Assembly: GCA_008632985.1 (NCBI GenBank)
Contig: QPGO01000050.1
Span: 434,001 to 498,000, forward strand
Length of the DNA: 64,000 nt
DNA from: Psammoneis japonica
Taxonomy: Eukaryota
Direction of reading: 5' to 3'
Shown: one piece after another, positions 4,965 to 64,000 of the stretch
Numbering within the stretch: the stretch's first letter is position 1
Layout: each line of letters starts with the position of its first letter
Notes under the pieces: model-generated
Seen by the model: only the letters and a program-made list of their open reading frames with translations
Databases searched by the model: none
Told to the model about the DNA's origin: nothing
Translations under genes and position numbers: made by a program

Positions 4965-5335
4965 ATTTTTAACGACAAAAATGCGGCTGGAGACCGCAGA
5001 CCGCAGTGGCTGGCTGGTTGAAAAAAATCAGCAGAAGATTAGCTTCGGTGCAGATCGTCTTCCAAATTCTTATTCGCTCTTCTCTACTTCCTGCAGCAAG
5101 AATCTTATTCCCCAAGGATCTGTTGCAATCGCATCAATTTTGCCTTTGTCTGATAGCTGGTAGCTGGTATGTGTTCTGGCAACAACATGCCGCAACATTG
5201 ACCGTCATCGCGTCGATCGCGATTGATGTTGATTGGAAATCTTCGTGACGTCATCCGGTTATGATGCAGCCTCCACCTCTTCGCACCCCACGTTATTTTC
5301 ATCCTGAATCCCACACAAAAATAAAAGCAAGCACC

Positions 5336-7573
5336 ATGGACGATCTTGCCGACGAAGCCGCGTCTCTTGACGGATACTTTAGCGATGCTCCGCTGGACCC
5401 GAAACCCGACTATCCTCCATTAAAGGATTCGTTTGATAATGTCGTTATCATCTCCAATCTGCCCAAAGTTCCCGAGAGCAAGGTTGAAAAGCTGACAAAG
5501 GTGATTATGAAGCTCGTCTCAAGAATCGGTACGCTCGCGGCTCATCCCGAAACAGAATACACCGGTATGCATCTGCCGTTTGACAGTAGCAAGGGATCGA
5601 CGTGTGGCTTCTGCATCGTCGAGTACGAAACTCCGGAAGAAGCCAAGAACGCTGTGAATGTGTTGGAGGGATACAAGTTTGATAAGAACCATTCGCTCGC
5701 AGTCACGCTGTACAATCGCGCGTTGGAACTCAAAGAGGTGGAGCAAGAAGAGTTTGTCGAGCCCAAGCCTGCTCCGTTCGTGGAAAAGCCTAATGCAACG
5801 TCATGGTTGGAAGATCCCAATCAACGTGACGCATTTTGTATTCGGCAGGGCAAAGAAACGTGCATTCTCTGGAGCGACGGCAAGCATGATCCCGTTGTGG
5901 ATTACGATGGGAGGAGGGAAAAGAAAGCGGGGGTAGCGTGGTGTGATTATTATTGTCATTGGTCTCCCAAGGGATCCTACCTGGCGACTCTTGTGCCTCG
6001 TGCAGGTGTTGTTTTGTGGAGTGGTGCCACGTATGAAAAGACGGGACGCTTCCCAGCTCCGGGTGTGGAGTTTATTCTATTTAGTCCCTGTGAGACGTAC
6101 TTGCTGACATCGAATAATCGCAAGGACGATGCCGAGGCCATCAAGATTTTTGATGTACAGACCTGTTCTCTCTTGCGTAAATTTCCTCTCTATCCAACAG
6201 GGTTGGATCCCGCAGCCATGGATGGACCGCCGCCTCCCTTTTTGTGGTCGCACGATGACAAGTACTTGGCTCGCATGGGAAACGGGTTGGTGTCCATTTA
6301 TGAAACACCCAGTATGAAACTATTGGATCGGAGATCGCTAGCTGCGGATGGCATTAACGAATTCCAGTGGTCGCCCAAGGCAAACATTATGGCTTACTGG
6401 GTACGTATGACGTGTTGTTGCGACGAAGTAACAGATGCCTACCATAGTTCCTTTTGTGTTTGTTTTTCGTAGTCCCTCAATTCCCCTAAACCCCTCTCGT
6501 CTATATTACAGGCTCCGGAACAAAACAATACCCCGGCTCATGTGGATTTGATTGAAATACCCAGCCGAAAAAAGTTGCGCCAGAAAAACTTGTTCAATGT
6601 GACAAAGTGCTCCATGGTTTGGCAAAACGACGGCGACTACTTGGCGGTCAAGGTGACGCGCCATACCAAATCCAAAAAGACGCTGTACAACAATATCGAA
6701 CTCTTTCGATTGGCAGAAACCGGAATACCCGTTGAAATGCTTGACATTAAGGACGCTGTCATGGCTCTCTCTTGGGAACCAAGAGGATCAAGGTTTGCCA
6801 TGATTCACGCCGAGAACCCGTCCTCGACCAAGGTCAATGTCTCCATTTACGACATGATGAAGACGCAGGAAGTACAGAAAAAGGGAAAGAAGGGAACCAG
6901 GACTGAAAAGCAGATTGTACCCGAACTCAACAAGGTGGAGACTCTCCAAGGAAAGCAGTGCAATTGTCTCTTTTGGAGTCCTGCTGGACAGACACTGCTC
7001 TTGGCCGGATTGGGAGACAATGCGTCGGGAACACTCGAGTTTTACAATGTCGATTCCAAGGCTCTTGCCGTCAAGGAGCATTACCGTGCCAACAATGTCT
7101 TGTGGGATCCATCGGGGCGTACAGTCGCGACGGTTGTGTCGCAACCCATTGGAGGAGGACACTTTAAATTTGCAATGGACAATGGATACATTTTGTGGAG
7201 TTTCCAGGGCAAGCAGTTGTACCAGCAATCATTTGAGACGTTTTATCAGTTGATTTGGCGTCCCCGAGAATCGCTCTTGTCGAAAGCAGAAATCGCCAAG
7301 GTCACCAAGAATCTCAAGCAGTACGAGAAACAGTTTGATGCTGCCGACAAACAAAGAAAGCGTGCCTTATACTTGGAAGAGACCAAGGGTAAACGTGCTG
7401 AGCGGGCCAAGTACCGTGAGCTATTGGAGAGACTGCGTGCCATTCGAGAACGGCAGAAACCGGAGCGTGTGGCACTCATGCAAGGATATGATTCAGACGA
7501 TGAATCCAACTACATTTCAAAAGAGGTTACCGTGGAGACAGTCCTCAGTACAAAGGAAGAGACTGTGTTGTAA
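5336..7573 (+). CDS. eIF3b: Eukaryotic translation initiation factor 3 subunit B (2 exons; intron 6401-6511)
   Basis: N-terminal RRM (VIISNLPKVP...GYKFDKNH), eIF2A-type beta-propeller (WSPKGSYL, LRQKNLFNV, WEPRGSRFA, WDPSGR, MDNGY, WRPR). The GT..AG intron joins AYW|APE in frame. Confidence 0.96.
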
Positions 7574-15129: not shown

Positions 15130-16830
15130 TTATTTGCGTGAACTTCTTTGTTCTCCTGCACCGTTTCGTCAGCGGCGTTGTGCTCATTGCTTGCGCCACC
15201 AAAGGTTCGAACCTGCGCCATGGGCGTTTTGCCCATTGTTTGCATCACTCAGGTTTGCACCTGAGCTGGGATGCGTTGTCGTGGCGAAACCCGCCCGTCG
15301 CAGTTTTAAGCCGCCACAACAATGAGCCGTCATCGAGCGCAGAATCCTAAAGCACGAGCACGCGAGAAAGTTGAGGAATCCCTGGAAAGGAATCAAAAAA
15401 AGACAGCGCGTAAAACAAGCCAAACCAAGTGCAATGATCTGTGTAAGTGGAAGAAATAACAAAGACGACAGGCCAAGAGATGTAAAAGCAGAGGAGATGC
15501 CACCATGCCAAAAATCTTGCCAAAATGCAAAGAGCGATTTTCTTTGTGACAGACTGTCCAGAGAGTGTCTTCGCCATGGTCAGAGCAGCACAGACCATGA
15601 CGAGCCCAACAGGAGCTGCAATGAATGCATTTTCATGATCGTCATCAAAGTGACACATTGCAATGCTGCCCCCCACAATGCTTGGAAATCCCTGCAAAAG
15701 CAAGGACCAGACCAGCCTCAAAAGGCACACCAGCTGGTCCATCCTGAATCGCTTGAGTTTGTCTTCACTCAACCGACACACTGTGGACAACATGAGGGCA
15801 AGGGAAAGACTGGAGAAAGGTGTGGCAATGCCCCACTGGATGAAAAATGCTTGAGCGGTTCATGTTGCATTGTTTCCTTTGGTGCCATGGTGTGCTGAGT
15901 CCTCTGGTGTGGTTGCTGGTGTTGAGAGCAACCATGCTGCTGTCAATGACAGGACATCTGCACAACTCATGGACGGGAGTGTGTCATGTGGGGCAGTGCT
16001 CTTCTTTCTTCAAACCATGTTGTGGGTCATGAATGATGATCCCTGTTGCATTCAATGCAAATAATTCAGCAGCTTTGAGACAACTGCACACAATGCCTTT
16101 TGTCCTTGACGACAAAATGAGCTCGCAGCAGAACAGACAAGATGGCCGAGGAGATTCTCAGCATCCATGCCAAGATCCTCTGGCATCTCAGCAACTCATC
16201 ACCCTCACATCCACACAAATGGCCTGCACTGTCCTGGTTGAAGGTGCAGTCTTCATCACCTTCTGCAAATGCCCAAGCGATCGATGGACTGACAAAGTCG
16301 TGCATGCAAGGGGGTGTTGCCCAACAAGGAAAGAATTGTTCNNNNNNNNNNNNNNNNNNNNNNNNNNNNNNNNNNNNNNNNNNNNNNNNNNNNNNNNNNN
16401 NNNNNNNNNNNNNNNNNNNNNNNNNNNNNNNNNNNNNNNNNNNNNNNNNNNNNNNNNNNNNNNNNNNNNNNNNNNNNNNNNNNNNNNNNNNNNNNNNNNN
16501 NNNNNNNNNNNNNNNNNNNNNNNNNNNNNNNNNNNNNNNNNNNNNNNNNNNNNNNNNNNNNNNNNNNNNNNNNNNNNNNNNNNNNNNNNNNNNNNNNNNN
16601 NNNNNNNNNNNNNNNNNNNNNNNNNNNNNNNNNNNNNNNNNNNNNNNNNNNNNNNNNNNNNNNNNNNNNNNNNNNNNNNNNNNNNNNNNNNNNNNNNNNN
16701 NNNNNNNNNNNGGATCAGCTCTTGCTTGCAAAACCACAGAAAACCTCTTCACTCCTGCTCCAAATGTTGCTTTGTAAGTCAGGAGAGGAAAGTGGTGAGC
16801 AGAGTCAAACCTCTCAGAGACAGCCTGGCG
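15130..16830. other. TpA/CpG-depleted degenerate domain 1 (spans the assembly gap)
   Basis: About 1 TpA and 13 CpG in 15541-16341 by manual count; TG/CA-rich. Confidence 0.85.
16342..16711. other. Assembly gap (370 N)
   Basis: Run of N. Confidence 1.
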
Positions 16831-26835: not shown

Positions 26836-27462
26836 TCACGGTATCACGGCCACTGAATTTCTGCAAGGCTCCAAAAAGATGACGTGAACCGTCGATTCCA
26901 CTGAAAAGCCGTAGTCTATGGGACGCCGGAAATCTTCCAGCATCTTCCCAGCGAAACACAAGCTGATATTTTCGCCAGGTACATGCCTCAAGTTCTCACG
27001 TGGGACACCGCCAAACAGCTCCACGGCTTTCAGTTTCAGCACAAGACACGGAAAGCAAAGCGAAGGCAATTGGATGCTGCATGTCTGCCGGTTCAAAGCT
27101 TTGAGATGAACCATGTAGGGCCGAGTTCTGGAAACTCTCCTGACCACGTGAAGAGTTGAGTGGGGAAGGATTCCAGCCTCGGAGAGGGTGACCTGGTCAC
27201 TTCCGTGTCCATGTAGCACAAAATCTACCGAAAACACAACGGATGCATCTCCCTCGTGACGAGGGTTCTTCTCCTTCCACAACGCCAACAGACGCTGTAG
27301 AAGTTCCCCAACTGACTCGCCCATCATTGCATCCTCAAAGTGCAGCTTCTGCGACTCCCACGGCGATTCTTTGAACGATTCATTGGAAATGTTGACTACA
27401 ATTGCATCCATTGCAGATTTGATGACAGCTTTGGGATTCACTCGATACTCGACACTCAACAA
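26836..27462 (-). CDS. Protein with two tandem ubiquitin-like domains (start uncertain)
   Basis: TLSEAGILPHSTLHVV and LCFAGKMLED..PIDYGFSVESTVHVI resemble the ubiquitin C-terminal half. No terminal GG. Confidence 0.65.
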   Translation of the reverse strand: MLSVEYRVNPKAVIKSAMDAIVVNISNESFKESPWESQKLHFEDAMMGESVGELLQRLLALWKEKNPRHEGDASVVFSVDFVLHGHGSDQVTLSEAGILPHSTLHVVRRVSRTRPYMVHLKALNRQTCSIQLPSLCFPCLVLKLKAVELFGGVPRENLRHVPGENISLCFAGKMLEDFRRPIDYGFSVESTVHVIFLEPCRNSVAVIP

Positions 27463-27699
27463 TCAAGACACCTGTTTGTCATCAGCACTGACGACCAACC
27501 AGATCAGTCACGAATCGAAGTCGGCGCGGCAGGCACAGGCGGGCACACCGGCATGCAGCAGTGCGTGTCAGCGCGTCTTTTCCCAACAGACGAGACATGT
27601 CCCCCCTGATGCTGTGCTAGCTGCTGTCAACACTGAACACCAACGCGTCGACTGCTAGTAGCTAGAGTAGAGATAGACTACCAGGCCGGGGGACGCCTC

Positions 27700-30600
27700 A
27701 TGCGTGTGTGGTGTGTGCTCCCTCAAACTCGCTCGCACGTGCATGATGAGTCTTTTCACGATTTTGCGATCTCTCTTCTGGCTTTCAAGGACACACTTCT
27801 TCTGCAATGTTCGCAGAAGGGCTGCAGCACTTTGCAGTTGGCTGAGTGGAGAGAGGAGAGAAGACAGCCCCAGGGAGACTTGAACACTGGAGGGGGCATC
27901 ATCAAGAAGGGCAGAGGCAACAGTGCATTGTTGGCGAACATGGCACATGGCATGGGGCAGCTCAGGAGAGTCCAGGGATTGTTGCTCACTTGACGAGGGC
28001 AGCAAAGGAAGTGGCAAAGAGGACAAAGAGTCAGTTGCCAGCATTGGGGTGAAGTTGTGGAAGAGGTTGCAGAGAGGTGGAGATGAGAGTGGTGGGGGGT
28101 TGTTCCAGGAGGAAAGGGGGGAGAGCTTGGGGGGCAGTGGAGTCACCAAACGGAAGCTGAGCTGCCTGCACGAAGGAGGCCAAAGCCACCAAGGGATGCA
28201 GAGAAAAAGGCTGTGGTGAGGGAGCAAGGAGGGAGGGGGTGACACAGCAGAGAGCAAGGTGTCTTGAAAAGGGGAAATTCTCATGAGTGGGTTGGGGGGG
28301 TGTCTCCTCAGGGTCAGCCACCTCAAAGTGGTGGCATGAGCTGGCCCTGATGAGGGGGCAAGCAGATGAGGAAGGAAAAAAGAAGTGCTTGAAGAGCTGA
28401 GCTTGGGTTTGCTTGTTGTGGGCGCAGATGAGGAGCTTCTTCACCTTAGAAGAAAGGGCTGGGGGCATTTCAGAGAGGACAGAGCAGGCAAAGTCAAGAA
28501 GGCTTGGGAACCCAGGGGTGGCCGAGAGGGAGCAAACATCAGACGAAGCAAGCTCAGGGTTGCAGGACAGGTCATTGTTGGGGTCAAGGCAGGAGAGAGC
28601 ATCCCAAAGAGGGCCTGCCTGCAAAAAAGGAAGTGCTGGAATTGTGCAAGCTCTGCCAGTCAAAGTGAAAAATTTGGCTTTGCAGACGTTGAGAAGCTTG
28701 GTGCTGTGTGTGGGCACCAAGAGCTGCAAAGCACTCAAGGCCAAGGGAGAGAAGAGTGCAGGGGAAATGCAGGAGCATCATTTGCACAAAAAAAGCCAGC
28801 AGAGGTGGGGGAGAAGGGTGGAAGACAGTCAAGGAGTTTGCGGTTCATGGGGCACAAAGGGCTGGGGAGAGAAGAGCCAGCCATGCAAAGATGTGGCCAA
28901 GCGGGGGGCAACCTTGAGGAGTGTGAATCCTTTGTGCTGCTGAGTGAACAAGCTCCATAAAAAGTCAGGGCAATGTTGCTGGCAGTTGTTTGAGCTCTGC
29001 AAATGATGGCATCAAAGAAAAAATGGAGGCACCAGAGGTGGAAGACTGGTGTGAAAAGAGGCAAGGAGGTCATGGCAAGCATTGTTGTCGTGTGACACTT
29101 TGTTGAACATGTGACAAGGTTGAGGAGGGGCAGGAGGGCTTGGTGAGAATGGCAGACAAGCCAAGCCAATGCTGGACATCAGCTGGGTGGAGCAGTGTGG
29201 AAGAGACAGTTGGGGCCACCTCTGATGCTGACTCCTAAAAATTGCCCACCAGCCGCCAACAAGGAGGTGCTTGGTGAGCTCAGAGCTGAAGAGAGTCATG
29301 ACAACAGACAGAGCTGGTGATGTGCCAGAGAGCTTCAAAAACATTGATTGGATGAAGCTTGTCAAGATCAGACTGGTCTTTGTGCATGGCAAAAAAGCAG
29401 CTGGAAGCAAGGACAGGGTGGATGGACAGAGGCACTGAACCACTGAGCAAGAGGACAAGTGGGGCCCCAAATGAAGGCTGGCGGGGTGGTGTGAGTTGCC
29501 TGCTTTTGAGTTTTGGTGGTGTGGAGACAGGTGCAGGCTTTGAGAAGGTTGGCAGAGTCAGCAAAAATGCTGGCAGCATCAGCAAGCTTTGTGCATGCTG
29601 AGGGCAGAGAGCAGAGCATTGGCAGGGAGGCAGATGGGGCAGTTGTTGCAGGAGGGCCAAGGTGGAGTGCACACCCGGGGCAGAGGAGGGAACATTGCAC
29701 AAGCGGAGGCAGTGAGGGCACAGCTTGAGCATGGCAGAGAGAAACCCAGGTGTGATGACAACAAGAGAAGGTTGGCTTGGAGTTTGCTGAATGGAAGCTG
29801 CCTTTGTGGCATGTGCTTGGACAGAGCAGCAGCAGGCAGAGGTGGAGAAGTCAGGTGACAAAGGAGCACCATCAGGCAGCAGGGCAAGAAGCAGGCGTGA
29901 AAGCTCATTGCAGAGCTGACACAGGCATGACCATGGCAGAAAATTGAGAGGCAAGAAGCACCAACAGCAGGGCTGAACTTGGTGGGGCCCCAAAAGGAGG
30001 GACAGGGGCAAGGAGGAGCAAGGCCTCAAAGAGCAGAAAAGTTTCCAAAAGGGGGCTGAATCCCACTGCCAATGCAGAGCAAGGCAGCTGGGGTCATGTG
30101 TGGTGGGCTTGGATGCAGCAAACACCCACTGGACAATGTGATGAAGGGAGGTGCTGAGTGTTTTGTTTGTGGAGGGAGAAAGCAGCCAGAGGCACAGAAG
30201 GGAGGGAGTGCCACACACCAGAGGGAAAAGAGCTGCTGGGGGGGAGGGCAGTCAGTTGCCAGCACAAACACCACTCCTTTGCAAAGAGCTCAAGGGTCTG
30301 GCAGCAAAACAGCCAGAAAAAGGGGGGGGGGGAACCACAGTTGCACAGGTTGAAGTTGGAGAGTGCAGCTGTGCACGGGGAAGCAAAGAAATGGAGTTTG
30401 AGCTGCTTGGTGGGTCAATTTCATGGGCACAGAAGACTGGCACAAGAACGGAGTGGAGACCACAAAGGAGGCATTGTGTGCTGGATTGGGTGAGAGGGCA
30501 AGTGAGGCAATCTGTGAGGACAGTGTTGGCACCATTTTTTTCTGGCAAGCAGAGATGTCCTTGAGGGCACCACAGATGCTTGCAAATGATGCCTGAGCAG

Positions 30601-31600
30601 GGAACAGAGCAGCAGGGAGGAGCATTGGCACAGAGGAGCTGTGAGAGCTTGAAAAGATTGAGGAGAAAAAGAGAGTGGGTTGGTGATGTGGAGGAGAGTG
30701 TGATTTGAACAGTGTCAGCTGACACAGATGTGTGGAAAACACAAAGGGGCAGAACTTGGTGTGGCAGGCTCTTGGCTCTGGCTCAAGAAAAACGTGCAAT
30801 GGCCTGGTGCTGAACAGGATTGATGAGGAAGGTGGCATGATCCTAGAATGACAGCTGTGGAGCCAGAGACTGGCAGCAAAACTGGGTGTTTTGCTGACAA
30901 GAAAGGCACATGGGACACAGGAGAGCAAACACTCACAAGTGCAGTGGGAGAAACAACAGAAGGAAGGGGTGATGCCAGCAAGGATGCTGTGCACCAGAGT
31001 CATGAAGAGTGCAGTGCCAAGTCCAAGGGTTGTCACCCATGACAGAAGAGTTGGCAAAGCAGCAGGAGGGTTGAAAAAGGCAGAAAAGTTGCCAGTGGCA
31101 GGCCAAAGTTTGGTGAAGTGGGAGCTGGGGTCTGTGCACCATCTCTGGAAGAAGGGCAAGCCTTGGCCTTGAAAGAGGCAGCCACTGAAAGCAAGCTGAT
31201 GATCTCCTCTGTCATGGTGGGGAAGAGGAGACAACTTCATGGGAGAAGGCCCTCTTCTGGCTCTGACAGGGTCAAGAGCATTTCTTGATTTTGAATGTGT
31301 GACAGACTGAGCACTTGAGAGCAAATGCAAGGTGGGGGGTGCACTGTTCACTGTTGATGCTGCAGCACAGTCAGAAGGCTTGTCAGATGGGGTCAGCGGG
31401 GGTGGGCATGGAACAATGTGAGCCAGAAGCCCAACGTTGGGCAAAGTGAATGGAGTGGGGGGTGGACATGGTGGAGGTAGACACAAGGAGTGCATTGATT
31501 TGCAATGAGGTGATTTTGTGGGCAACAACTTGCCAAAACAAAAGAAACATGGAAGCTGGCAGCAGAAACACATTGATGTGTGCATGTGTTGTGGTGCACC
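27700..31600 (-). mobile_element. Heavily mutated non-LTR retrotransposon (CRE-like reverse transcriptase); extent approximate
   Basis: Ordered minus-strand motifs HKD..DKLHPINVFEALWHI (29312-29390), MFNKVSHD (about 29090-29112), QGCP (about 28905-28916), CAND at the YADD position (about 28777-28788) and LNVCKAK (about 28675-28695). Confidence 0.7.
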
Positions 31601-32549
31601 AGCATGAAAGGAGGCTGGGTATGATGAAAAAATAGAGGTGGCACTTTCTTTTGTCCTTGGCTGTTTTCTGTGTCAATTTGTCCAAGTTTCAAGAAACAAA
31701 GAAGTGGCAAAAGCACCAGCTTGTTGTTTGCTGCGTGATGTCTGCTCCTGGCTGTGTCACACTCTGACCTCTTGCCCTTTCCTGCAGCTTTTCTTGTTGG
31801 CACACACAGAGTCCTGGGTTTTGCTGGTGCCTTCTTGCACAGCTGTCATTGCCAGTGTGCTGCTGTTTGGGCACATCCTGCGTTTTGAGTGGTGGCATGA
31901 CTGATCTGCAGCCTTTTCTGCCACAGAGATGACCCAGCCAGCCTGATGATCATTGCCTGCATCTTTTTTCATTTTGCAAGCAGCAGCCAGCCATTTTTAA
32001 AAGCCTTTTGTTGCACGCATTTTTGAACTCTTTTGCTGTTTGAATCAGATCAAATGAGCCATTTTGTCAATCTCCATTGACAACACGTTTTAAGCAATTG
32101 CAAGCTGTCATTTGTTTGCCATTGTCTGGGTTTGCCAAACATTGTTTCAATCAGATGCAGCGCATCTGAGTTTGCAGAAGATTGATGTCTCACTTTTTGT
32201 GACACCATCCTGCTCTTGTTGAAATTTAAATCTTCACACACCACTGGCCCACTTGCTGCATCTTGATTGTTTGTGTCTGTTGGAGCTGCGCTGCTGTGCC
32301 AGCTGATCATTGCTGCCAGCACCCACATGTGCAGCTTTGTTGTGCACTCTCAACATGGTTGAAATTCACAGGAAGGAGGACAGAGGGGCAGCAGAGTTGG
32401 CCTCAAAGGCATTTCTTGTGAACAAGATGTGGTGGCAAAGCTGGTCAAGAAAGAGGTTGGCTGGGGGGTGTCAGCTTGCCGGCTGCAGCACTGGATGGTG
32501 AGTGCCTGCAGAAAGGCAACCCAGCAGCCTTTGGAGAAATGGGGGCACT

Positions 32550-34370
32550 GCATCACCTCCTGCAAATGTTCCTCCTCCCACACAAGTGGCTGCTCATGCC
32601 AACACAATTTTGTGCTGGCTGTTGTGGCCCCATGTCACCTTGTCCACAAGAGGTTCAAAGTCAGAGCAAACTCGAGCTTTCCAACTTAAAGGTGAAGGGG
32701 CACCATGATCACATCATCAACCAACCCAACCAAAGTGAGCTGAGGGCACTGGCAGTCTCTGGTGGACCCCAGCTGACACTTTAGGAACCACAGCCAAGCA
32801 GCACAAAAGGCTGGCATTGTGCAGTTCTTGTTGCACCCTGTCACCCCCCCCCCCCAGGCCACAAGCAGCAGAGCTCAAGTCCACAGTGAAATGACCCCAC
32901 AAGTGCACCAGTCAACCAGCCCATCAACTGCAACAAGCTGAGGGTGCTGCTGGGCCTCAAGCAACACTTTAACAACCATGTGGTTGAGCACTGCAAGGTT
33001 GATGTTGTGGTGGCACTGTTGCTCTGTGCCACCTTGTCCTTGACAGGAGGTGAGCAGCAGACTTGAGTTTCCAAACTCCACAGTGAAAGGATCCCACAAA
33101 GGTGCCAACCAACCCAACAGCTGCAAGCTGAGGGCAGTGCTGGTGGTGTTTGGCAGGCCCCAAGCAACACCTTGAGAGCTGTGGTTGAGTGCTGGCTACA
33201 AGGCCTGTCTTGTGTGGTTGTGTGCAACCCCCCAAAATCACGCTCTCCACACCAGAACCATGTTTGAAATTCCCAACTCCAGCCACTGTGAAAGGGCCCC
33301 ACAATGGCACCAACTGACACTGCAGCTGCAAGCTGAGGGCACAGGTGGTGTCTGGAGGACCCCAGGGGCACTTTGAGAACTGTGGCTGAGCATCGTTGCA
33401 AGGTTGATCTTGTGGTGTTGTGGACCCATGTCACCTTGTCTCGAACAGGTTGGAGGGGCAGACTTTTGAGTTTCCCAACTCCAGCAGAGGGCAAAGGCCC
33501 CATGACAGCACCAACCAACCCAGCTGCTGCATGGCAAGCTGAGGGCACTGGCAGTGTCTGGCAGCAGGCCCCAGGCAACACTTTGAGAGCTTTGGTTGAG
33601 CCCTGCAAGGTGCCTGTCTTGTGCAGTTGTGCCCCCTGCCTGTCACATCCACGCCAGAAGAAGATTTGAAATTCCCCACTCCAGAGTGAAAGGATCTCAT
33701 GGTGGGCCAACCAACACAACAAGAGTGGGAAGAGGGTGTTGGGGGTGTCTGGTGGGCACCAGGGGACACCACTTTGAGAACTGTGGCCAAGCACAGCATG
33801 GCAAAGTTTGTGTTGTGGTGCACTGGCCTCATGTGGTCATCACCTTGTCCCAGACAAGAGCAGACTTGAATTTCCCAGCTTGGCAGTGAAAGGACCCCAC
33901 AACAGCACCAACAAGCCTTGCAACTGCAAGCTGAGGGCACCATCAGTGATGCCTGGCAGACCCCAGGAATCACTTTAAGAACCATGGTTGAGCACTGCAA
34001 GGTTGATCTTGTGGCATTGTGACCCCGTGTTTTCTTGTTGTTTGGAGCAGACTCTGTGTTGAGTTTTTCAACTCTAGAGTGAAAGGACCCCACAACCATG
34101 GTGAGGCAGCAACCAACCCAACTGCAGCAAGCTGAGGAGGTGCCAGTGGTGTGTGTCTTTGAGAGCCATGACAGAGCTTTGCAAGGCCTGTCTTGTGTGG
34201 TTGTGGCTCCCAGTCCCAGTGCCCTCCTCCCTGCTAGAAAGAGACTTGAAGTTCCAAGCTCCAGAGTGAAAACACCCCATGACAGAGCCAATCAATCCAA
34301 CAAGAGCAGGCTGAGGGCATTGGCAGTCTCTGACAGACACCAGGGGGGCTCTTTGAGAACCAACTGTTTC
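32550..34370. repeat. Diverged tandem repeat (satellite-like), unit about 180-205 bp, about 9 copies
   Basis: A GCTGAGG anchor recurs at about 32739, 32937, 33127, 33332, 33538, 33930, 34131 and 34310. CCAACTCCA.AGTGAAAGGA.CCCACAA-like segments recur at the same spacing. Confidence 0.85.
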
Positions 34371-36840
34371 TGAGCAGCAGCACAAGATGACCTGCAACCT
34401 GCAATCAAAAATGAGCGAGCCTTGGTTTTTCTTGCTGTTCCCATCCCAAGGGTTGATGCATTTTTGTGTGGGGGGGCAAGGCTTGCACATTGAGATGTGC
34501 ACTTGAAAGGCTTAAAAGATGTGAATCAAGGGCTGTGCCAAGAATTTGAAAGACATGATGGCGAGGCATGCATGATGTCAGCAGGGCAGCAAACTTTCAT
34601 GATTTGTCACCAGGGTCTTTGGAAGCACATGCACAATGAGAAGCCAGAGGCTTGGCAACTTGCTGCATGCATGAGACACTTGATTGTGGCACCTGAGAGG
34701 TTGGGAGCATTGCAGCACAATTTGTGGAGTGCACCCACAGGTCCACAGGAAAGAGGCATCACATCAAGAGCTGGGACAACCACATGGTTTTGAAGGTGGC
34801 AGCTTGAGCACACAGGTCAAAGGCGTGGACAACAGCCATCACATGATTGGAGCATGTGCACTTCTCAGCCCAGTTGATCCAAGATTTGATGGCTTGCCAG
34901 CATGACAGCAGAGTGAAATGACACAGCAGGGCTCAATGACAATGTGCAACTGCAAAGGCACGATGCATGTGTGGCTGGGATGAGGCTGGTGTGGTTCATT
35001 CAAAAGTTTGATTGTGCCAAGTTGCAGTGGGTGAGCAAAGCTTCAAATGGCAATGTGCTGGATGCACCAGAGACACAGAGGAGTTGTTGTGCAGTGGCAC
35101 CAGGCAGCATGAGAAGAGTGGAAAAAATCTAACGGCATTTTTGAATTGAGTTTCTTGCTGTTGCTGGGTGGAATTGTTGACAATTGCAGTGTGGGGGCAG
35201 AGCTTTCGGCCCCAGGTTGCAAGAAAATGATTGGTTGAACAGAGGATTGTTCATGCTGCAATCTGGGTTGATGTTGGAATTTGTCACAAGTTGCAATGTG
35301 ATGACAAGGTCAAGTCAGTTGATGGGCATTGTTTGTGGCAACTGATGGAAGCACACAAATGTCTGAAGGAATTAAATGAGCAATGCCATCGCATGGAGGC
35401 TGCTTGACATTGTGGTGAGCCGGGGTCTGGAGCACAAGTTGGTGTTTGGGCAGGAGGAAAGGACTCAAGTTTGCAGCTGCATGGTCTGTCAAAAGCAACT
35501 TGGTTCAACGGAAGTCATTTTGAAAGGAGAGTCTTTTCATCATCATTGTTGGACATGCAGTTGAGACACAGTGGATTGCACCAGGGGTGTGCCATTGTCT
35601 TGTACAAACAATGGATTGACAGCTGAGTTGTGCACAATGCCCCATGCAACAAAGGGACAAACATGCAGCAGCAGAAACACTGAAAAAATGCAGTGGTCAA
35701 CCAAAGAAAAGCTCTTCCAAACAAATGAGTCAACTCTGAACAAGATGCTTGGCCACAAAACAAAACATTGCAAATCAGTGGCTCTGCCAGAAAAATGAGC
35801 TGTCTGTCAAACTGAGCCCTGAACAAGGAATGATTTTTTAGCAGCATCACATCATTTGTGGCAAGGGGCAATGAGCCAGTGGCAAAACATCTCATTTGGA
35901 ACTTGAGCAACAGCAAGGAACTTGGCTGACTTTTTCTAAAATTGCAATTCCTGCAGTGGAGAGAGCAACCACACAATGTGCAAAAAAAATTTCTTGTCAT
36001 CAGCTGCTCTTCTTGCCAAAAGCATGAAAATGTGTTGCAGAGGTGGGGTGATGGACCGTGCTCTGTGGGGGCTCTGTTTTCCATGTGAAGATTTGTCTGG
36101 AGGAGAAGGGTTCCAGCCTTGAAGGGGATGAGCTGGTTGCTGACATGTCCACACAGCACACAATCTGCTGAAAATGCAGTGGGTGCATTTTCCTCACAAA
36201 AAAGACTCTTCTTCTCCTTTCACAAGGCCAGCAGGCACACTGCTGAAATTCCTCACAGCTGGCTTCTTGACCCCACAAGCAACACATTCTCATGTGGCAA
36301 CGTTGGTGTCAGCTGCATCCGTTGCAGATTTGAAAGCTGCTTTGGGAAGCACTCAATGACCAAGACAAGAGGTCGAGACATGCACCAGTGCCATCAACAG
36401 CATGTCTCCCCATCAGACAATGTGGCTGATGCATTGATGCTCCATCAACAATGCCATCTGCTGGAAAGGGAAAGACGACACCTGCCTCGTGTGCTCTCTC
36501 AAACACTCCTCAACTCACTCGAGTGTGGGCGGCAGTTGCTCTCATGATTTTGTGCTCGTCTCTCCTCCAGCTGGAGGACACTTCCATGACATTCATAGAA
36601 GGATGGCATCATCTGCTTTTTCCATGGTGGTGTGTTGGGCCATCGCCCACATCGTCACCGGTGATCTTTGAATATCCGGGTCTCTTTTGATGGATGGAGT
36701 TCTCTTCTTTTCTTCTTTTTCGATCGCGTCCGTCGTTTTTGTGTATTGAAGACACAACATGAAGCAGCAGACGACGCCCAACATTGACTTATTTCTGTAG
36801 ACACTGGGCTTTGAAAGATAGAGACAAGAGTCGTATTATC

Positions 36841-57404: not shown

Positions 57405-57853
57405 TTTGGTTTCACGTTTATGTGCAATGCTTCGACCATCGACCATGCATGCATGCACCTCCTACCTTCGCTCTTCAAGCAGGCCACTGCTTCACACTGA
57501 ACGGTACGGACGGAATAGCAGACGGTATTTTGTATATTTTGTAAAAAAATTCATGTCGTGTGTCGTGTGTCGCGTGAGGCGACGTTGGACGTTGGACGAC
57601 ATAAGCGACAAGGCGTCAAATAAGCTTTGAATGAGGCGTCGGAGCGAACGTTAGGGTGAGGCATGGGAGTATTGGTTGGGGCTGAGGTGACTTGAGTAAC
57701 TGGAGCAGGAGAGGGTCAAGGCAACCCCCCAACTGTGGGACGAGCCTTGCGAACTCTGTTGCTAGGCCTCATCCCGATGCGAACCCCGCGCGATAGTTCA
57801 AAAAAATGAGAAGCCTTTCCCGATAAACAACACTACCTCGTTAGTAAACAACA

Positions 57854-59588
57854 ATGGAGAAACAAGCTTCGACATTCAAAAAAGACAAGAGAAACGATGA
57901 AACTACGCTCCTCTTGCCGAGGACCGAGAGCAATTCTGACAGCGAAAGCGACGACAGCGAGATTGTTGTCACCTACGCCTCCTTGTGGACGTCGCATCGT
58001 CCGTTCCGGTTGTTGTTTGTGGGGTGGAACTTGACGATTTTTGGGGAATGGTTCAATTATGTTGCAGCCATGACGCTGCTCAAGCGAATTGTGAACGATC
58101 CGGAAAACGACAAGACAGCCATTGCCGTGTTGGTCGTGCTTTGGTTGTTGCCAGAAGTGATCTTTTCGGGCGTGGGTGGATTGCTAGCGGACTTGTGTGA
58201 TAGACGATGGTCCATGATTGTCCTGGATATACTCGCCGGTTGTCTGGGATTAATGTACTTGATAGCCTTTGATTCCATGATCTTGGTGTATCTCATTTCT
58301 TCCTGAAAATGACCACTGGAGCCCTGTACGAACCTTGCGCGGGATCCATCTTCCCCATGCTGCTCGACAATGCACACGAACTCAAAAAGGCCACCGTAAG
58401 TAATGCATGCCCGCGTCAGCAACAATTTCAGAGATCTCTCTGACATGCATTATTGCTGGAACTTTTGCTTCTGATTTAGACCCTATGCGTGTTTTTCGAA
58501 TCACTTTTGGCGGCGCTGGGACCGGCCCTTGGTGGCCTAGCCGTCTCAATGTGGGGCTTGACAACGTGTTTTGGTGCGTACGACGACGGAGTTCCGCAAT
58601 GTCCAAAAATGCTTCGAACTATGGCTCACCCTTTACGATACAGTTTTAGACAGTCTACTGTGTTTCGGAAGTGCGCTATTGACATGGTTAGTCGGTGGAT
58701 CTTGGGATCCGTCCGATGAGGAAGACGATACCAGTTCTGGAAGTAGCGAGGATGGAAGAGAATGGGGAAGGAGGTGATAGTAGCTCAACAAATAGCGAGG
58801 ATGAAGAGGCCGAGGAAGAAGGGGACGAAACGTTGTTTCAGACGCTACGGAAAATGGCCGTGGGTGGAGTCCAGTATCTCATGCGCAGCTTTTTCGGTCC
58901 GTTGGTCTTGCTCAATTGCAGTTCGGCCTTGATTTACGGGTCCCTTGACGTTCTCGAAGTCTCTTTTTCCGAACGAGGGCCCGACGAGAGTAGAGACAGC
59001 TTGCTGCTCGGCACACTGTTTAGTTTGTCTGGCTTGGGCGACTTACTTGGCACTATCATTGCGGAGTATTTCACGGACGTTAAAAATCCCAGTAGTCTGC
59101 AACGAGCTTGCGTGTGGTCATTCTTTTCTATGGCAGTTGCCTTTCTCGGCATGGGGATCTTCCCTGCCTTTGTAAGTCCTTGCATTTTTACGGTAGTCGA
59201 TTCTGCCGGTGCGACCGTGATCGAAATTGCGTCGGAATTATTGCTTCAGGTACGTGCACACTAAGCTTTGCTTTGGCACAGTTGTTGGTTCAAAGCTCAT
59301 GTGTTCCATACTCTATACACACAGTTATACACTCGGCCTAAGATGCTGGGACGCGTGTTGGCGATTGACATCACATTGAGCACGACAACAGAGATTATTT
59401 CCGCCATGCTGGCGGGATGGGTACAGGATACCTTTCATGTTTCGGCGCAGTCGGTCAGTTTGGGAGCGTCGGTGATCGGATTTTCCGTCTTTCTTTCGTG
59501 GTTCGTCTTTCACAGAACTGGACACGGGGCAGCCAGTCTACGCGCTCGAGCTCATGCAGGCCATTTTTCCAAGGCACCGCGTGTTTGA
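57854..59588 (+). CDS. Major facilitator superfamily transporter (DHA3/H+-antiporter-like), with introns and frameshifts
   Basis: FGEWFNYVA, motif A GGLLADLCDRRWSMIVLDI, ALYEP, LGPALGG, MLGRVLAID, multiple TM helices. Confidence 0.85.
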
Positions 59589-61160
59589 CGACGTCAAAAT
59601 CTAAAATCACAGGGACTCCCATGAACTTACATTTGAGATTATGTTATTAATATTCAGAGTCACACCAGTGGTAGCGGATGAGCTTTGAAATAACAACTGG
59701 AATCATTCAACACGATTGTAATGACAGAAGTGACAATGGGTATGGGTTACCTCTAGGGTGCCAGAAGTGGCAATGACGTTATGTTGCCGTTCGTCGGACC
59801 TTATCAAGTGGCTCCCCAAGACAAAGGGTTAAAGACAGAGTGCATCAAACAGCTCAATATATAGGAATGCCTCTGAATTGTGGTTTAGAAAATGTCATGT
59901 TTGGATTTCTGTTCGCCTCATCCTCCCGGCTCTACGACGAAGAGCGGATCCCTGGTGTGTCGTATCAAGAGCTAGCCCAAATGAGAAACGCCTGCAACGG
60001 GCAAAGTTCGGCGGTGTGGATATAGATGAGGACAAAGGATTTAGATTAGACGAATTTAGATGACAGTCTGTATCACATGTTTGCAAATCGCAGTGACTAG
60101 CAGATTCCCAGTGCTGGTGGTAGTGAGACTGTGAACGCTTCGGAGCTCACTATGGGAAAGCAGAGCAACAGTGACCGGATCGACGGGAAGAATTGGCTGC
60201 AGGAGCAATTCTGGTGACGCACCAAAGGAGCAATCATTTTTTGACGAGGATTGCAACAATGAATGGATTGAAGGTACAACTGTTTCATTTGACAGTGTGA
60301 CGGGAAAGTTAAGCTCCGGGGACACTCCCGGTGGCGTCACACTTTGACAACCGTTCCTGCATCTCATTCAAACAAGAAACAGGTCTGTCCATGGTTGATG
60401 TGAAGAGTGATCATCAAGAGCCAGAAGAGGAGGATGTCTTTGACAGAAATGCTGAGGAAATGAGGAACTCGCCCTAAATCAGACAAGCATGCTCTTGCAG
60501 TCGACAGACATGAAACGGTGCGTTAGATTTTGTCATTTCATTGGGTTGCTTCTTGTGGTTGGGATCCCACGTCTGTTGCACTTTACCAGTGCAACACTTC
60601 ATGATGCTTTCTTGACCGTCAGCCAGCACCAGTCTTGCATTCATGATCGCGGTTGTTCCGTCATGGATGGAAATCCGGGTAAATTGGCCACAGCTTGCCA
60701 TGACCAGTTTGTTTTCAACAGGAGGATGAGATGGCAAACAAGGCAGTTTTCTGTCACTGAGTCTTCTCAATCAAAGCCTTCTTAAAAACCAGGTCATGCA
60801 GCTCTCTGTGACATTGTCCAGGAGCTGCAAGCTGCAGACAGCTCTTTCCTGGAGTGCCGCATGGCTGCGTTGATCAGTGATGACCGTGTCACCCAAGGAT
60901 GGCTCAAGTGCAGGAATTCACAAAACACATCGTTTGTGACAAAGAAGGCCAAAGAGGCCAGTTTGATTGTGTCCCCAGTGCCAGCCTCCAGTCTAAAGCA
61001 GCCAGGCCCTCCACGGCAGTGGCTGACCTCTGTTTTGTGGAACAGTGGGATGATTTGAGTCACAGTCACATTTCGGTCATTTTTGTGCTGCACCGTTGCC
61101 AAAAAAGGTCAACTGGGAATCACATTTCTGAGGTGCAATTCCAAAATTGTTGTTGTGTGG

Positions 61161-61345
61161 ATCACCATCATCAGGCCTCTTCCACAAAAATTGACAACAA
61201 AAACAAGAGCACATCATCTCACTGTCATGATTTCTGAGGCACCACTCCAAGATTGTGTTGTGTTCATCACCATCATCAGGCCTCTTCCTCAAAAAACAAC
61301 AACAAAAACAAGAGGGCATCATCTCACTGTTGTGATTTGTGAGGC
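61161..61345. repeat. 105-bp tandem duplication
   Basis: ATCACCATCATCAGGCCTCTTCC...AAAACAAGAG..CATCATCTCACTGT occurs at 61161 and 61266. Confidence 0.88.
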
Positions 61346-63290
61346 TCTGTTCCAAAATGGTGTTGGTCACTTTTCCTGGTGATTTCAATGCATTGTGCAT
61401 CAAATGCAGCCACGCTTGTCATTGCAGCAATGGTTTCTGGTCCTTCTGAACAATGCAGAGCCAGCAAAAGTGTGTGCACCAAATTCTTGATTCATGCACT
61501 TTGGGCTTTCATGTTGCACATGGTGCTTGCTGGGCAAAGCCATTGATGCCAGACAGTGCTTGCATGCACGTCAGATGTTTCTAGCTGTTTCAAATGATGC
61601 AATCTGCAGCTGTGTCATTGACAAACTGTGCATGGTGTCTTGATGACAAATGTTCACAACAGCCATTTCAACAGAAGGTTTCAAACCAGCTGTTGTTCTT
61701 CCACCTTTCACACCTGAAAAACAGAATGAAGTCATTTGGGCAAGATGATTTGGGTCAACAGGTTTGGTTCTCAACCTTCTCAAATGACATGAAGCAAACA
61801 AGAAATTTTGGACAAGGGGTCTGCACTGGCAACATGATCCTCACATGGTGACATTGGTCCTCATGACTCTGATTTGCAATCCATTGTTCATTCTTTGCTG
61901 GCGCTGGTGCTCTGGACTCCAAGTTGGGAGCAGGGTTGTTGGCACTTGGTGCGTGGGTGTTCTGATTTTTGATCAGTCAGATCAGAGCTGCTTGGTGGAT
62001 TGTCCTGATCATGCCATTCTTGACCAAGCAAACAATGGCTCTGGTTCAGGACAAATCTAAAATTTGTGTTTTGAGTGCAAAACTTGAGACTTGAGATGAA
62101 CAAAAAATGCAAGGTCAGACAAGAACACAATGACACCACCTGCAAACCGCAACTTGAAAATTGAAGCAGCTGACTCTGCAGCTTCCCACGCACTCCCCAG
62201 AATGCCAATGGTGGCTCTTTGAGAAGACATGCAAGAAAGGTGAGCTGCTGCTGCACTGCACTGGGAAAACACTGGGGGCTTGACTTGAGACTGTTTGCCA
62301 GCTCTTGTTTGCAAGCATCCTGGAAGTGCTCAGTGCAGCATGGCTCCAAAACTTGACCAAAAGAGTTTGGGCTCAACAAACATTGGTGGTGGGGTCCCTC
62401 CTCATGCCCCTGTGACTGTGAGAACACCATGCCAGCACCTCAACTTCTTTCCATTTCCCAAAGGTGCAAATGCTTCCTGTGAGGCTGAAACAAAAAAGCA
62501 GAGTGTTTCAAAAAGCCAATCTGTGGATCAATTGCATGGTTGATGGCTGCAAAAGAGACAAATCTCAAAGGATTCACAGGGCCAATCTTGGCAGTGGTTG
62601 GCCTGTCATCTTGGCTGCAACAATGCCAGCAACAAAGACAAACCTTGTGGGTGCAGACTTTGACTTAAAATGCCACCTCTTTGAAGAAAACAATGAAAAC
62701 AGAGACCAGCCAACAGCAGAAATTCAGAAACTCCATTGACCATCCATGTGTCTTCATCTGCAGCCCACACAATGAGGTGCAATCATTGCACTTCAGCTCT
62801 CAACTTGGGTCTCAAAGCACTTGGGTCAATGTGGGGCTGCTGTCATTGCTGCATGGTCAGACAGTCCATGGCTGGACATCTGCTGAGCTCACTTGACCAG
62901 ATCTGCACATTCTTGCAAAGCTCAACCAGCTCCTTTTCTGGCTCCACATTGAAGCTTCCATCTCCTCTCATCCTTCTTTTGAATCTCAAACAATGGGAAA
63001 AACTCTCATGACAACTGCCAGGTTGGTCAAAGCTGCCTGCGGCACTTGTGGCCATCACATGACCTGCTGATGAGCAGCTGGGAGGTGCTTTGACTCTGCC
63101 TGCATCAGCACGTTGGCTGTGTGATGAAAATGGATGCCAAGGTCAATGATGTCTACACCTTTCAGGAATGACCAAAATCCATTGTGCTCAATCAATGACT
63201 GCTGCACCACCAGGTGCAGGAAGATCATGGTCGTCTCAACCAATCATGTTGCCAAGTCTCCCTGCCAGGTCAGGACTTGGCAAACTGGCA

Positions 63291-63945
63291 TGCAACAAGC
63301 TTGCATGTGGCCACTCTTCACTGTGGCAGTTCTCTTTCTTGTCATGGGAATCTTTCCCACCTTTGCACATCTTTGCATTTTTGTGGTGGCAGATTCTGCT
63401 GGTTCTGGCACATGCAAACCAAGCTTTTGATTTGGCCCAGTTGTTGGCTCACATCTAATTTTTCCATGCTTTGTGCACACTGTTGTGCACTTGGTCCAAG
63501 AGATGCTGGCTGGGGCTGCATTGGTGATTGATGCCACATTGAGAACAATGGCAGAAAGGAGCATTTTGCTGGTCATCAGATCATCTGCCTTTCTTTCACA
63601 GCTCATCTTTTACAGAAGCGGACATGCAGACATGTGGGGCAGCCACCAGCCCACATGCTCAAGCTCACTTGGGCCATTTTTCCAAGGCTCCACATGATGT
63701 TTGACAATGTCAAAATCTAAAAACACAGGGGCTTCCATGAACTTGGCAACACACCAGACTGTCAAACTTTGCATTTTTGAGATTGTGTTGTTCAGAGTCA
63801 TGCCAGTTGCAGGGTGGATGAGCTCCAAAAGAACAACTGCAATCATTCAACACATTTCCAATGACACAAGTGGTGCTGGTTCTGGTCCACCACCATGGCA
63901 CCAGAGGCAGGCAAGTGGCAATTGAGATGTCATTTTGCCGCTCCC
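63291..63945 (+). pseudogene. Mutated DNA-level copy of the MFS gene 3' end, last intron and downstream flank (about 59098-59790)
   Basis: Ungapped 113-nt alignment 63291-63403 vs 59098-59210 (88/113 identical by hand), with further collinear blocks to about 63945. Confidence 0.92.
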
Positions 63946-64000
63946 AAGACATGTTGCAAAGGGCCAGCTTGTGACCATGTCTCAGCCATCAGATTGCTCA

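Follow-up and report, generated by a model that had tools for sequence, protein, structure and literature searches.

Paired depletion of CpG and TpA in kilobase-scale tracts of a diatom genome

The window analysed here, 64,000 nucleotides (nt) of the diatom Psammoneis japonica (contig QPGO01000050.1 of assembly GCA_008632985.1, positions 434,001 to 498,000), contains three tracts, T1, T2 and T3, in which CpG and TpA are the only depleted dinucleotides and CpA and TpG the only enriched ones. The direction of the change can be read in T3 from a decayed copy (A') of the 3' part (A) of an intact MFS-like transporter gene 3.5 kb away: over the 542 nt aligned in gap-free blocks of at least 12 nt, the copy has lost 24 of the 25 TpA and 23 of the 24 CpG steps of its partner, 20 and 22 of them, respectively, to TG or CA. 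We consider it likely that the tracts record a regional mutation regime combining two activities, deamination of 5-methylcytosine (5mC) at CpG and an A:T>G:C change specific to TpA, both directed at the same silent domain.

Context-specific losses in duplicated gene segments

The original prediction had described, for two ungapped blocks of this pair, a directional and context-specific change of CpG and TpA into TpG or CpA in a DNA-level duplicate, and our recount reproduced its figures exactly. The block 59098-59210 against 63291-63403 holds 25 mismatches in 113 nt: all six CpG and all four TpA are lost, nine of the ten to TG or CA, and the remaining 93 nt hold 15 mismatches. In the block 59304-59342 against 63462-63500, six of six TpA and the single CpG are gone, with three further differences. 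The homology exceeds the flagged interval and is interrupted by several indels (A and A' in Table 1), A' having a 35-nt deletion facing 59207-59241; an extension beyond 63945 was tried and was not significant. Over the 542 nt, the other fourteen dinucleotides are retained at 33-79%, the lowest values belonging to those that overlap CG or TA. Identity in the first block is 94.9% in purine/pyrimidine code against 77.9% at the nucleotide level, and the differences between A and A' are therefore mostly transitions.

A second, independent pair, absent from the original prediction, behaves in the same way. The segment 27135-27310 is of normal composition; its copy at 36072-36255, in T2, has lost eight of eight CpG and three of three TpA over 176 aligned nt. 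With both pairs pooled, the loss is 58 of 60 for target steps and 249 of 642 for all other dinucleotides (Fisher p=3.6e-20); TG or CA has replaced 50 of these 58 steps (TpA, 27 of 28 lost and 22 converted; CpG, 31 of 32 lost and 28 converted). The A:T>G:C change at TpA, predicted as a second component beside CpG decay, is thus borne out by both counts. For comparison, non-context A>G and T>C changes, with double transitions between TG and CA ("flips") excluded, number 24 per 317 A/T sites in the two pairs. The intact partners keep their target steps (25 TpA and 24 CpG in the 542 nt, 3 TpA and 8 CpG in the 176 nt).

The copy in T3 arose at the DNA level, as had been proposed. Its source, an intact, spliced gene ending in a TGA at 59586-59588, was recognised as MFS-like from weak Pfam matches of exon 1 (MFS_3, 2.6e-05; MFS_1, 2.9e-05), which stay under the gathering score because only a fragment was scanned, and from 198 homologues of the exon 58692-59246 at E<=0.001 in an exhaustive protein search; a word-indexed search of longer proteins with the exon protein returned no homologue at E<=1e-5. 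Contigs of run X2 aligned to the gene reveal GT..AG joints at 58395-58480, 58572-58643 and 59246-59322, and because they join across the last of these intervals, the intron 59247-59321 is spliced from transcripts. A' nevertheless retains this intron, aligned at 63400-63498, together with about 200 nt downstream of the stop codon, and is therefore a DNA-level duplicate and not a retrocopy. A hyperedited retrocopy, made from a processed transcript without introns, was considered and rejected on the same grounds. The 5' two-thirds of the gene are missing from the copy and indels break its frame; A' is a pseudogene fragment.

The outgroup comparison suggested with the original prediction gives the polarity. 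In an alignment of 40 homologues with the translations of both A and A', 15 residues differ between gene and copy; at these, homologues carry the residue of the gene 187 times and that of the copy 33 times, siding with the intact gene at 13 of the 15. The intact copy is accordingly the ancestral one, and the TG/CA state is derived.

Two side observations concern the ancestry and the strands of these pairs. Run X1 contigs at 57936-59573 come in many versions 90-99% alike, up to eight at one site; the MFS-like gene seems to belong to a multicopy or highly allelic family, and the ancestor of A' may have been a paralogue instead of the neighbouring gene. Outside CG, TA and flips, the MFS pair (59098-59792 against 63291-63943, gene on the plus strand) has 16 T>C changes versus 2 A>G, and the second pair (27135-27310 against 36072-36255, gene on the minus strand) 6 A>G versus 0 T>C; read on the sense strand of the source genes, this amounts to 22 T>C versus 2 A>G. 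The T>C excess could be a strand bias of the process in the tracts, or could reflect transcription-linked C>T changes in the expressed copies.

Extent, boundaries and reality of the tracts

A per-kilobase dinucleotide table of the window delimits the tracts (Table 1), whose signature extends over their whole length, from 1.3 to more than 8.6 kb. Throughout, the observed-to-expected ratio (o/e) is lowered for CG (0.09-0.27) and TA (0.02-0.05) and raised for CA/TG (1.70-1.98), the background values being 1.00, 0.59 and 1.15, respectively. In T2, the largest, the ratios are 0.09 for CG, 0.05 for TA, 1.91 for CA and 1.70 for TG; T1 has a single TA where 33.6 are expected and 14 CG where 48.4 are expected, so that its CpG loss is only partial. 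The fractions of A, C, G and T match the background (GC 0.47-0.52 in the tracts versus 0.48), the sum of all pyrimidine-purine steps is unaltered, which is what conversion of CG and TA into CA and TG should produce, and the two strands are equally affected (CA 1322 versus TG 1335 in T2 and T3 together). When the Rho thresholds devised for TpA-poor, CpA- and TpG-rich DNA in the chlorarachniophyte Bigelowiella natans are applied, 13 of the 64 one-kb windows pass, among them uninterrupted runs at 28001-36000 (eight windows) and 60001-64000 (four).

Table 1. Coordinates of the tracts, repeats and gene segments in the window
Feature	Position	Strand	Basis or remark
Tract T1	about 15484..16830		interrupted by assembly gap 16342-16711
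Left direct repeat of T2	27118..27829	+	local alignment to 36053-36611
Tract T2 (largest)	about 27770..36420		dinucleotide o/e, boundary positions
Degenerate tandem array, ~200-nt units, inside T2	32500..34400	+	BLAST, autocorrelation
Right direct repeat of T2	36053..36611	+	local alignment, high-scoring segment pairs (HSPs)
Intact spliced MFS-like transporter gene (source gene)	57848..59588	+	open reading frames (ORFs), Pfam, spliced joints, homologues
Segment A, ancestral-like: last exons, last intron and ~200 nt of 3' flank of the MFS-like gene	59093..59795	+	alignments
Tract T3	about 60400..64000, continuing past the window end		CpG/TpA density, site positions
105-nt tandem repeat, 2.3 copies, inside T3	61124..61365	+	83% matches
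Segment A', decayed DNA-level copy of A, flagged finding	63286..63945	+	alignment to A

Misassembly, a contaminant or systematic base-calling error at modified bases was considered as a rival, and T1 does hold a 370-N assembly gap. Contigs of run X1 nevertheless recover the depleted sequence: one of 4827 nt covers 61224-64000 with eight other letters and extends about 2 kb beyond position 64000, and further X1 contigs bridge 60059-61228 into normal sequence; contigs of run X2, the source of the spliced joints, reach only to about 60041. Run X1 may be the assembled sample itself, which leaves an artefact some room, and its contigs are not identical to the window. The indels and the approximately 20% of non-context substitutions go beyond any base-calling error, and ordinary diatom genes are continuous with the tracts on both sides. 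We therefore give next to no credence to an artefact or contaminant, the objection anticipated with the original prediction.

The edges differ in sharpness. T2 begins abruptly near 27770-27812 and fades out at 36300-36700, whereas T3 has a graded left edge at 60400-61100, with 0.42 of the background density of CpG and 0.21 of that of TpA, and a core from 61100 to the window end, with 0.07 and 0.06. T2 is bracketed by a direct repeat of host DNA of about 0.6-0.7 kb. The left repeat comprises DNA upstream of a minus-strand gene for a ubiquitin-like-domain protein (1.8e-08 in the ORF 26836-27462, Pfam) as well as the 5' part of that gene, and is of normal composition except for its last ~60 nt; in the right repeat, the first ~370 nt are depleted and the right part, beside a gene starting at 36784, is normal, this weaker right-hand part still scoring 19 against a maximum of 14 in 200 shuffles. 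The depleted zone thus consists of the 8.2 kb between the repeats plus these ~60 and ~370 nt, and ends leftward just upstream of the ubiquitin-like-domain gene and rightward before the gene at 36784. The arrangement of T2 resembles an insertion of 8.2 kb whose target duplication is very long, or a circle integrated by a single crossover. At T1, a search for flanking direct repeats found none (score 13 versus a shuffle maximum of 19), and the gap may hide them.

The insertion-like bracketing raises the question of whether the tracts came from outside, as a virus, a transposon or a cDNA, and were already poor in CpG and TpA on arrival, for example, through selection against CpG and UpA at the RNA level. 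CpG and UpA avoidance is well known in RNA viruses, and apart from the two gene fragments no host genes are detectable in the tracts. This origin is hard to reconcile with host-derived sequence that, relative to its intact neighbour, has been converted inside the tract with its intron retained and with a polarity that the homologues bear out. The depletion also grades into flanking host DNA, at 60400-61100 and 36300-36700, and two versions of the tract differ at exactly the CG/TA sites. Depletion before arrival is in our view very improbable.

As TAA and TAG are gone, the tracts contain long overlapping false ORFs in all six frames, up to 460 aa (27000-36500 and 60400-64000). Pfam scans of the 65 tract ORFs that reach 90 aa gave no match at E<0.01, two at E of about 0.04 lying far under the cut-offs, and the seven tract ORFs among 18 long ORFs scanned likewise had none at that threshold. 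A transition-blind search in purine/pyrimidine code, tracts against the whole window, gave no further host-derived copies clearly above controls, the two marginal matches scoring 42 and 40 against a control maximum of 39; two host gene fragments are among the targets.

The units of the tandem array inside T2 are 62-68% identical at the nucleotide level and about 80% in purine/pyrimidine code, and Tandem Repeats Finder reported zero rows for T2, the array being too diverged. At 28000-31000, purines strongly predominate on the plus strand of T2 (GC skew 0.34-0.40, AT skew about 0.26), with equal counts of CA and TG. The 370-N gap at 16342-16711, which lies inside T1, is the sole assembly gap of the window; such tracts may be hard to assemble. 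Elsewhere, the eIF3B gene at 5249-7573 appears as two ORFs in the same frame split by a stop at 6470-6472, probably a short in-frame intron, and its fragment 6473-7573 is 74-79% identical to diatom proteins (named hits from Pseudo-nitzschia, Nitzschia, Seminavis and Cylindrotheca), none reaching 80%. By this similarity the window itself belongs to a diatom.

A regional regime and its alternatives

The original prediction called the process repeat-associated and "reverse-RIP-like", after the repeat-induced point mutation (RIP) of fungi, and this part is not supported. For about 8.2 kb of T2 and 2.9 kb of T3, even the transition-blind search detects no second copy within the window, and the intact MFS segment is of normal CpG and TpA content; the target is therefore a region and not a homologous pair, and the boundaries are as expected of a chromatin domain, not of a homology sensor of the RIP type. 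Mutation triggered by homology, with duplication as the signal and a chemistry other than that of RIP, does draw on the fact that both host-derived mutated segments duplicate sequence a few kilobases away and that many diatoms encode DNMT4 enzymes related to fungal RID. Still, a homology trigger would have to leave the partner copy unaltered while acting over kilobases lacking a second copy, and RIP creates TpA where here it is destroyed; we hold this mechanism to be very unlikely.

The regime that we favour would be limited by region and not by homology, acting in domains of kilobase scale. Within these, CpG and TpA would both change to TpG or CpA, always by transitions, until the two are nearly gone and CA and TG about doubled; the base composition would stay constant because the two conversions offset each other. 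The first activity would be deamination of 5mC at methylated CpG and the second an enzyme-driven A:T>G:C change confined to TpA, such as has been measured in mutation-accumulation lines of B. natans, both aimed at the same silent chromatin. Ordinary mutations that re-create a TA or CG would be rapidly reconverted, leaving flips between TG and CA. Methylation, silencing, enzymes and a defence role of the tracts are what we infer; the duplication, its polarity, the context specificity, the regional limits and the contrasts between two versions of the tract at these very sites are read directly from the DNA.

Such flips are seen. In the two pairs, 12 of 113 TG/CA sites carry the double transition, and among the internal ~200-nt repeats of T2, TG>CA reaches 11.4% and CA>TG 7.1%, compared with 0.5-4.9% for the double transitions of other dinucleotides, counts that are not independent as the HSPs overlap. 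Two versions of the T3 region differ at the same kind of site: among the 15 differences listed between X1 contigs and the window (60212-63320), seven pair a CG or TA of one version with a TG or CA of the other, two adjacent ones make up a CA<>TG swap and six are other changes, at a place where CG and TA together form <1% of the dinucleotides; a further 129 differences fall over a 7-kb stretch. Three of the seven lie at 60212-60232, just outside T3, where the window has lost a CG, a TA and a CG relative to X1, which suggests that the edge of T3 is active. With dinucleotide frequencies from the cores and non-context substitution frequencies from the two pairs as input, loss is estimated at ~75-fold the per-site background for TpA and ~37-fold for CpG, rough figures that assume equilibrium.

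An attractive alternative to two activities is a single pathway, which could be a deaminase acting on both C and A, or an oxidation of 5-methylpyrimidines (5mC and thymine) at self-complementary steps followed by mispairing, the thymine-oxidation variant being speculation. Both changes yield TG/CA through a transition of the pyrimidine that precedes its own complementary purine; the two depletions share boundaries within ~100-200 nt and reach similar depths in the cores (0.06-0.09 of background density), and ADAT2 enzymes, according to reports cited by the B. natans authors, edit both A and C in DNA. The partly converted zones tell against one pathway: relative to background density, TpA stands at 0.03 and CpG at 0.29 in T1, at 0.21 and 0.42 at the edge of T3 and at 0.13 and 0.52 at the right edge of T2. 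TpA being the more depleted in three of three such zones, the TpA process is not a by-product of CpG decay, and the two can be separated at least in part. In B. natans, moreover, TpA changes in the absence of C>T (A>G or T>C account for 230 of the 231 mutations), and in a metagenome contig discussed below (L016), CpG falls to 0.08-0.23 with TpA at 0.3-0.45. The unequal zones, B. natans and this contig together indicate that the two processes can occur separately, and we think a single pathway unlikely, if less so than the other alternatives.

Several points weigh against the two-activity regime or narrow its reach. Divergence at sites outside CG and TA is 19.8% (117/590), so that the copy is old and its pattern is partly history and not a measured rate. 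Run X1 is possibly from the same culture as the assembly and not fully independent of it. The 65 tract ORFs yielded no detectable viral or transposon domain, which leaves the foreign-DNA part of a defence role unsupported, even if a foreign origin could be masked by heavy mutation. For the CpG half there is no counterpart in B. natans, where CpG hypermutation was not seen. The evidence comes from one 64-kb window, which bears on generality across the genome, and a comparison with 71 diatom-like metagenome loci (427 kb, 3950 windows of 500 nt) found only one window passing the dual-depletion thresholds (CG and TA o/e <0.3, CA/TG >1.5), CpG-only on inspection; the regime is therefore not general around such genes in diatoms, although these contigs, short and gene-rich as they are, say little against a wide occurrence. 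The regime may be confined to one lineage or to particular loci.

In the same metagenome set, the end of contig L016 (14400-15619) has a CpG o/e of 0.08-0.23, an excess of CA/TG and a TpA of 0.3-0.45; this is ordinary CpG-only decay.

A wider proposal, which we put forward tentatively and think doubtful as it stands, is that TpA editing coupled to silent chromatin is an old arm of genome defence in at least two lineages of SAR (stramenopiles, alveolates and rhizarians), namely diatoms and chlorarachniophytes. In diatoms, it would act jointly with CpG methylation, the two perhaps sharing a machinery that recognises 5-methylpyrimidines or self-complementary pyrimidine-purine steps, and would permanently erase DNA in silent domains, duplicates of host genes included, with base composition unchanged. 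If true, it would be a transition-based counterpart of fungal RIP that does without homology sensing.

The two-activity regime would matter in its own right. Were it to act genome-wide, diatoms would silence DNA irreversibly at a second level, in addition to DNA methylation, and TpA-directed hypermutation would be neither an oddity of B. natans nor limited to viral inserts. It would offer a simple index for long-silenced algal DNA (CpG and TpA near zero, CA and TG doubled, composition unchanged), account for the failure of homology searches to recognise such DNA and point to a DNA-editing activity, so far unknown, that acts strictly at TpA. Its coupling to CpG loss makes it testable whether the two processes share targeting or chemistry. 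For annotation, gene finders could mistake the long false ORFs of the tracts for genes.

Comparison with known mutation systems

Neither 5mC deamination alone nor fungal RIP accounts for the tracts, as the original prediction argued, since TpA is lost and not created. CpG decay by 5mC deamination, the kind of depletion known from vertebrates, has in common with them the CpG>TpG/CpA transitions, the reciprocal gain of TG and CA and the location in non-genic DNA, and its CpG-only version is what the L016 contig end displays; it cannot, however, touch TpA, which here is lost at least as fast as CpG. Fungal RIP turns CpA into TpA, makes DNA AT-rich and mutates both copies of a duplicate. The likeness to RIP lies in the irreversible inactivation of non-genic or duplicated DNA by dense, context-specific transitions, and in a dinucleotide footprint that can serve as an index. 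Here, by contrast, TpA is destroyed (o/e 0.02-0.05), base composition is unchanged and the partner copy is intact.

According to Hoguin et al. 2023 (PMC9998398), diatoms methylate transposable elements at CpG via DNMT5a, the loss of which removes methylation in Phaeodactylum tricornutum, and many species encode RID-related DNMT4 enzymes of unknown function. Mutation-accumulation data for P. tricornutum name CG, CC and TG as mutable contexts, with nothing on TpA in the sections of the paper seen (PMC6604790).

Hyperediting in animals is another relative, and ADAR acting on double-stranded RNA with a 5' U preference and APOBEC acting on viral DNA are both discussed by Mettrop et al. (bioRxiv 10.64898/2026.01.13.699255). 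The tracts recall it in their clustered A>G changes with a preferred 5' T/U neighbour, in repeat or foreign sequence. They depart from it in that the retained intron and flank exclude an edited, spliced mRNA copied back, and in that both strands are equally affected. To our knowledge, ADARs are confined to animals.

The closest parallel is the TpA>TpG/CpA hypermutation that Mettrop et al. report from B. natans in a 2026 preprint (bioRxiv 10.64898/2026.01.13.699255). In mutation-accumulation lines, two integrated viral regions have a mutation rate ~1000 times that of the remaining genome; of the 231 de novo mutations in these hypermutable regions, 230 were A>G or T>C and the GC-biased ones all fell at TpA, and the genome holds 124 clusters of TpA-poor, CpA- and TpG-rich 1-kb windows (10.64898/2026.01.13.699255). 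As its role they propose protection from foreign DNA, for which an ADAT2-like adenine deaminase is the candidate (10.64898/2026.01.13.699255), so that the remark in the original prediction that it knew of no such description as genome defence is out of date. The two cases agree in the TpA>TpG and TpA>CpA transitions as the only changes at TpA, in the confinement to kilobase-scale regions, in the long-term footprint of TpA-poor, CpA- and TpG-rich 1-kb windows and in their independence of copy number, the nucleocytoplasmic large DNA virus (NCLDV) region of B. natans being single-copy.

They differ in several respects. The host there is a rhizarian and here a diatom (Stramenopila). The AT>GC-only spectrum of B. 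natans is not what we find: CpG is lost as thoroughly as TpA (31 of 32 in the pairs, tract o/e 0.09-0.27), whereas the B. natans text has zero mentions of CpG and only one of its 231 mutations was not AT>GC. TpA depletion is deeper here, with an o/e of 0.02-0.05 as against a Rho of 0.45 in the NCLDV region. Host gene fragments are among the targets in the diatom, where no viral or transposon domain could be detected. De novo rates were measured in B. natans, whereas ours is a reading of standing sequence alone. A literature search turned up no paper describing TpA hypermutation, or the joint loss of CpG and TpA, in a diatom, nor any on TpA hypermutation coupled to CpG loss or acting on host gene fragments. 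The present case is thus the second instance of a kind reported once before, in an unrelated alga, and what it adds is the joint loss of CpG and the involvement of host gene fragments.

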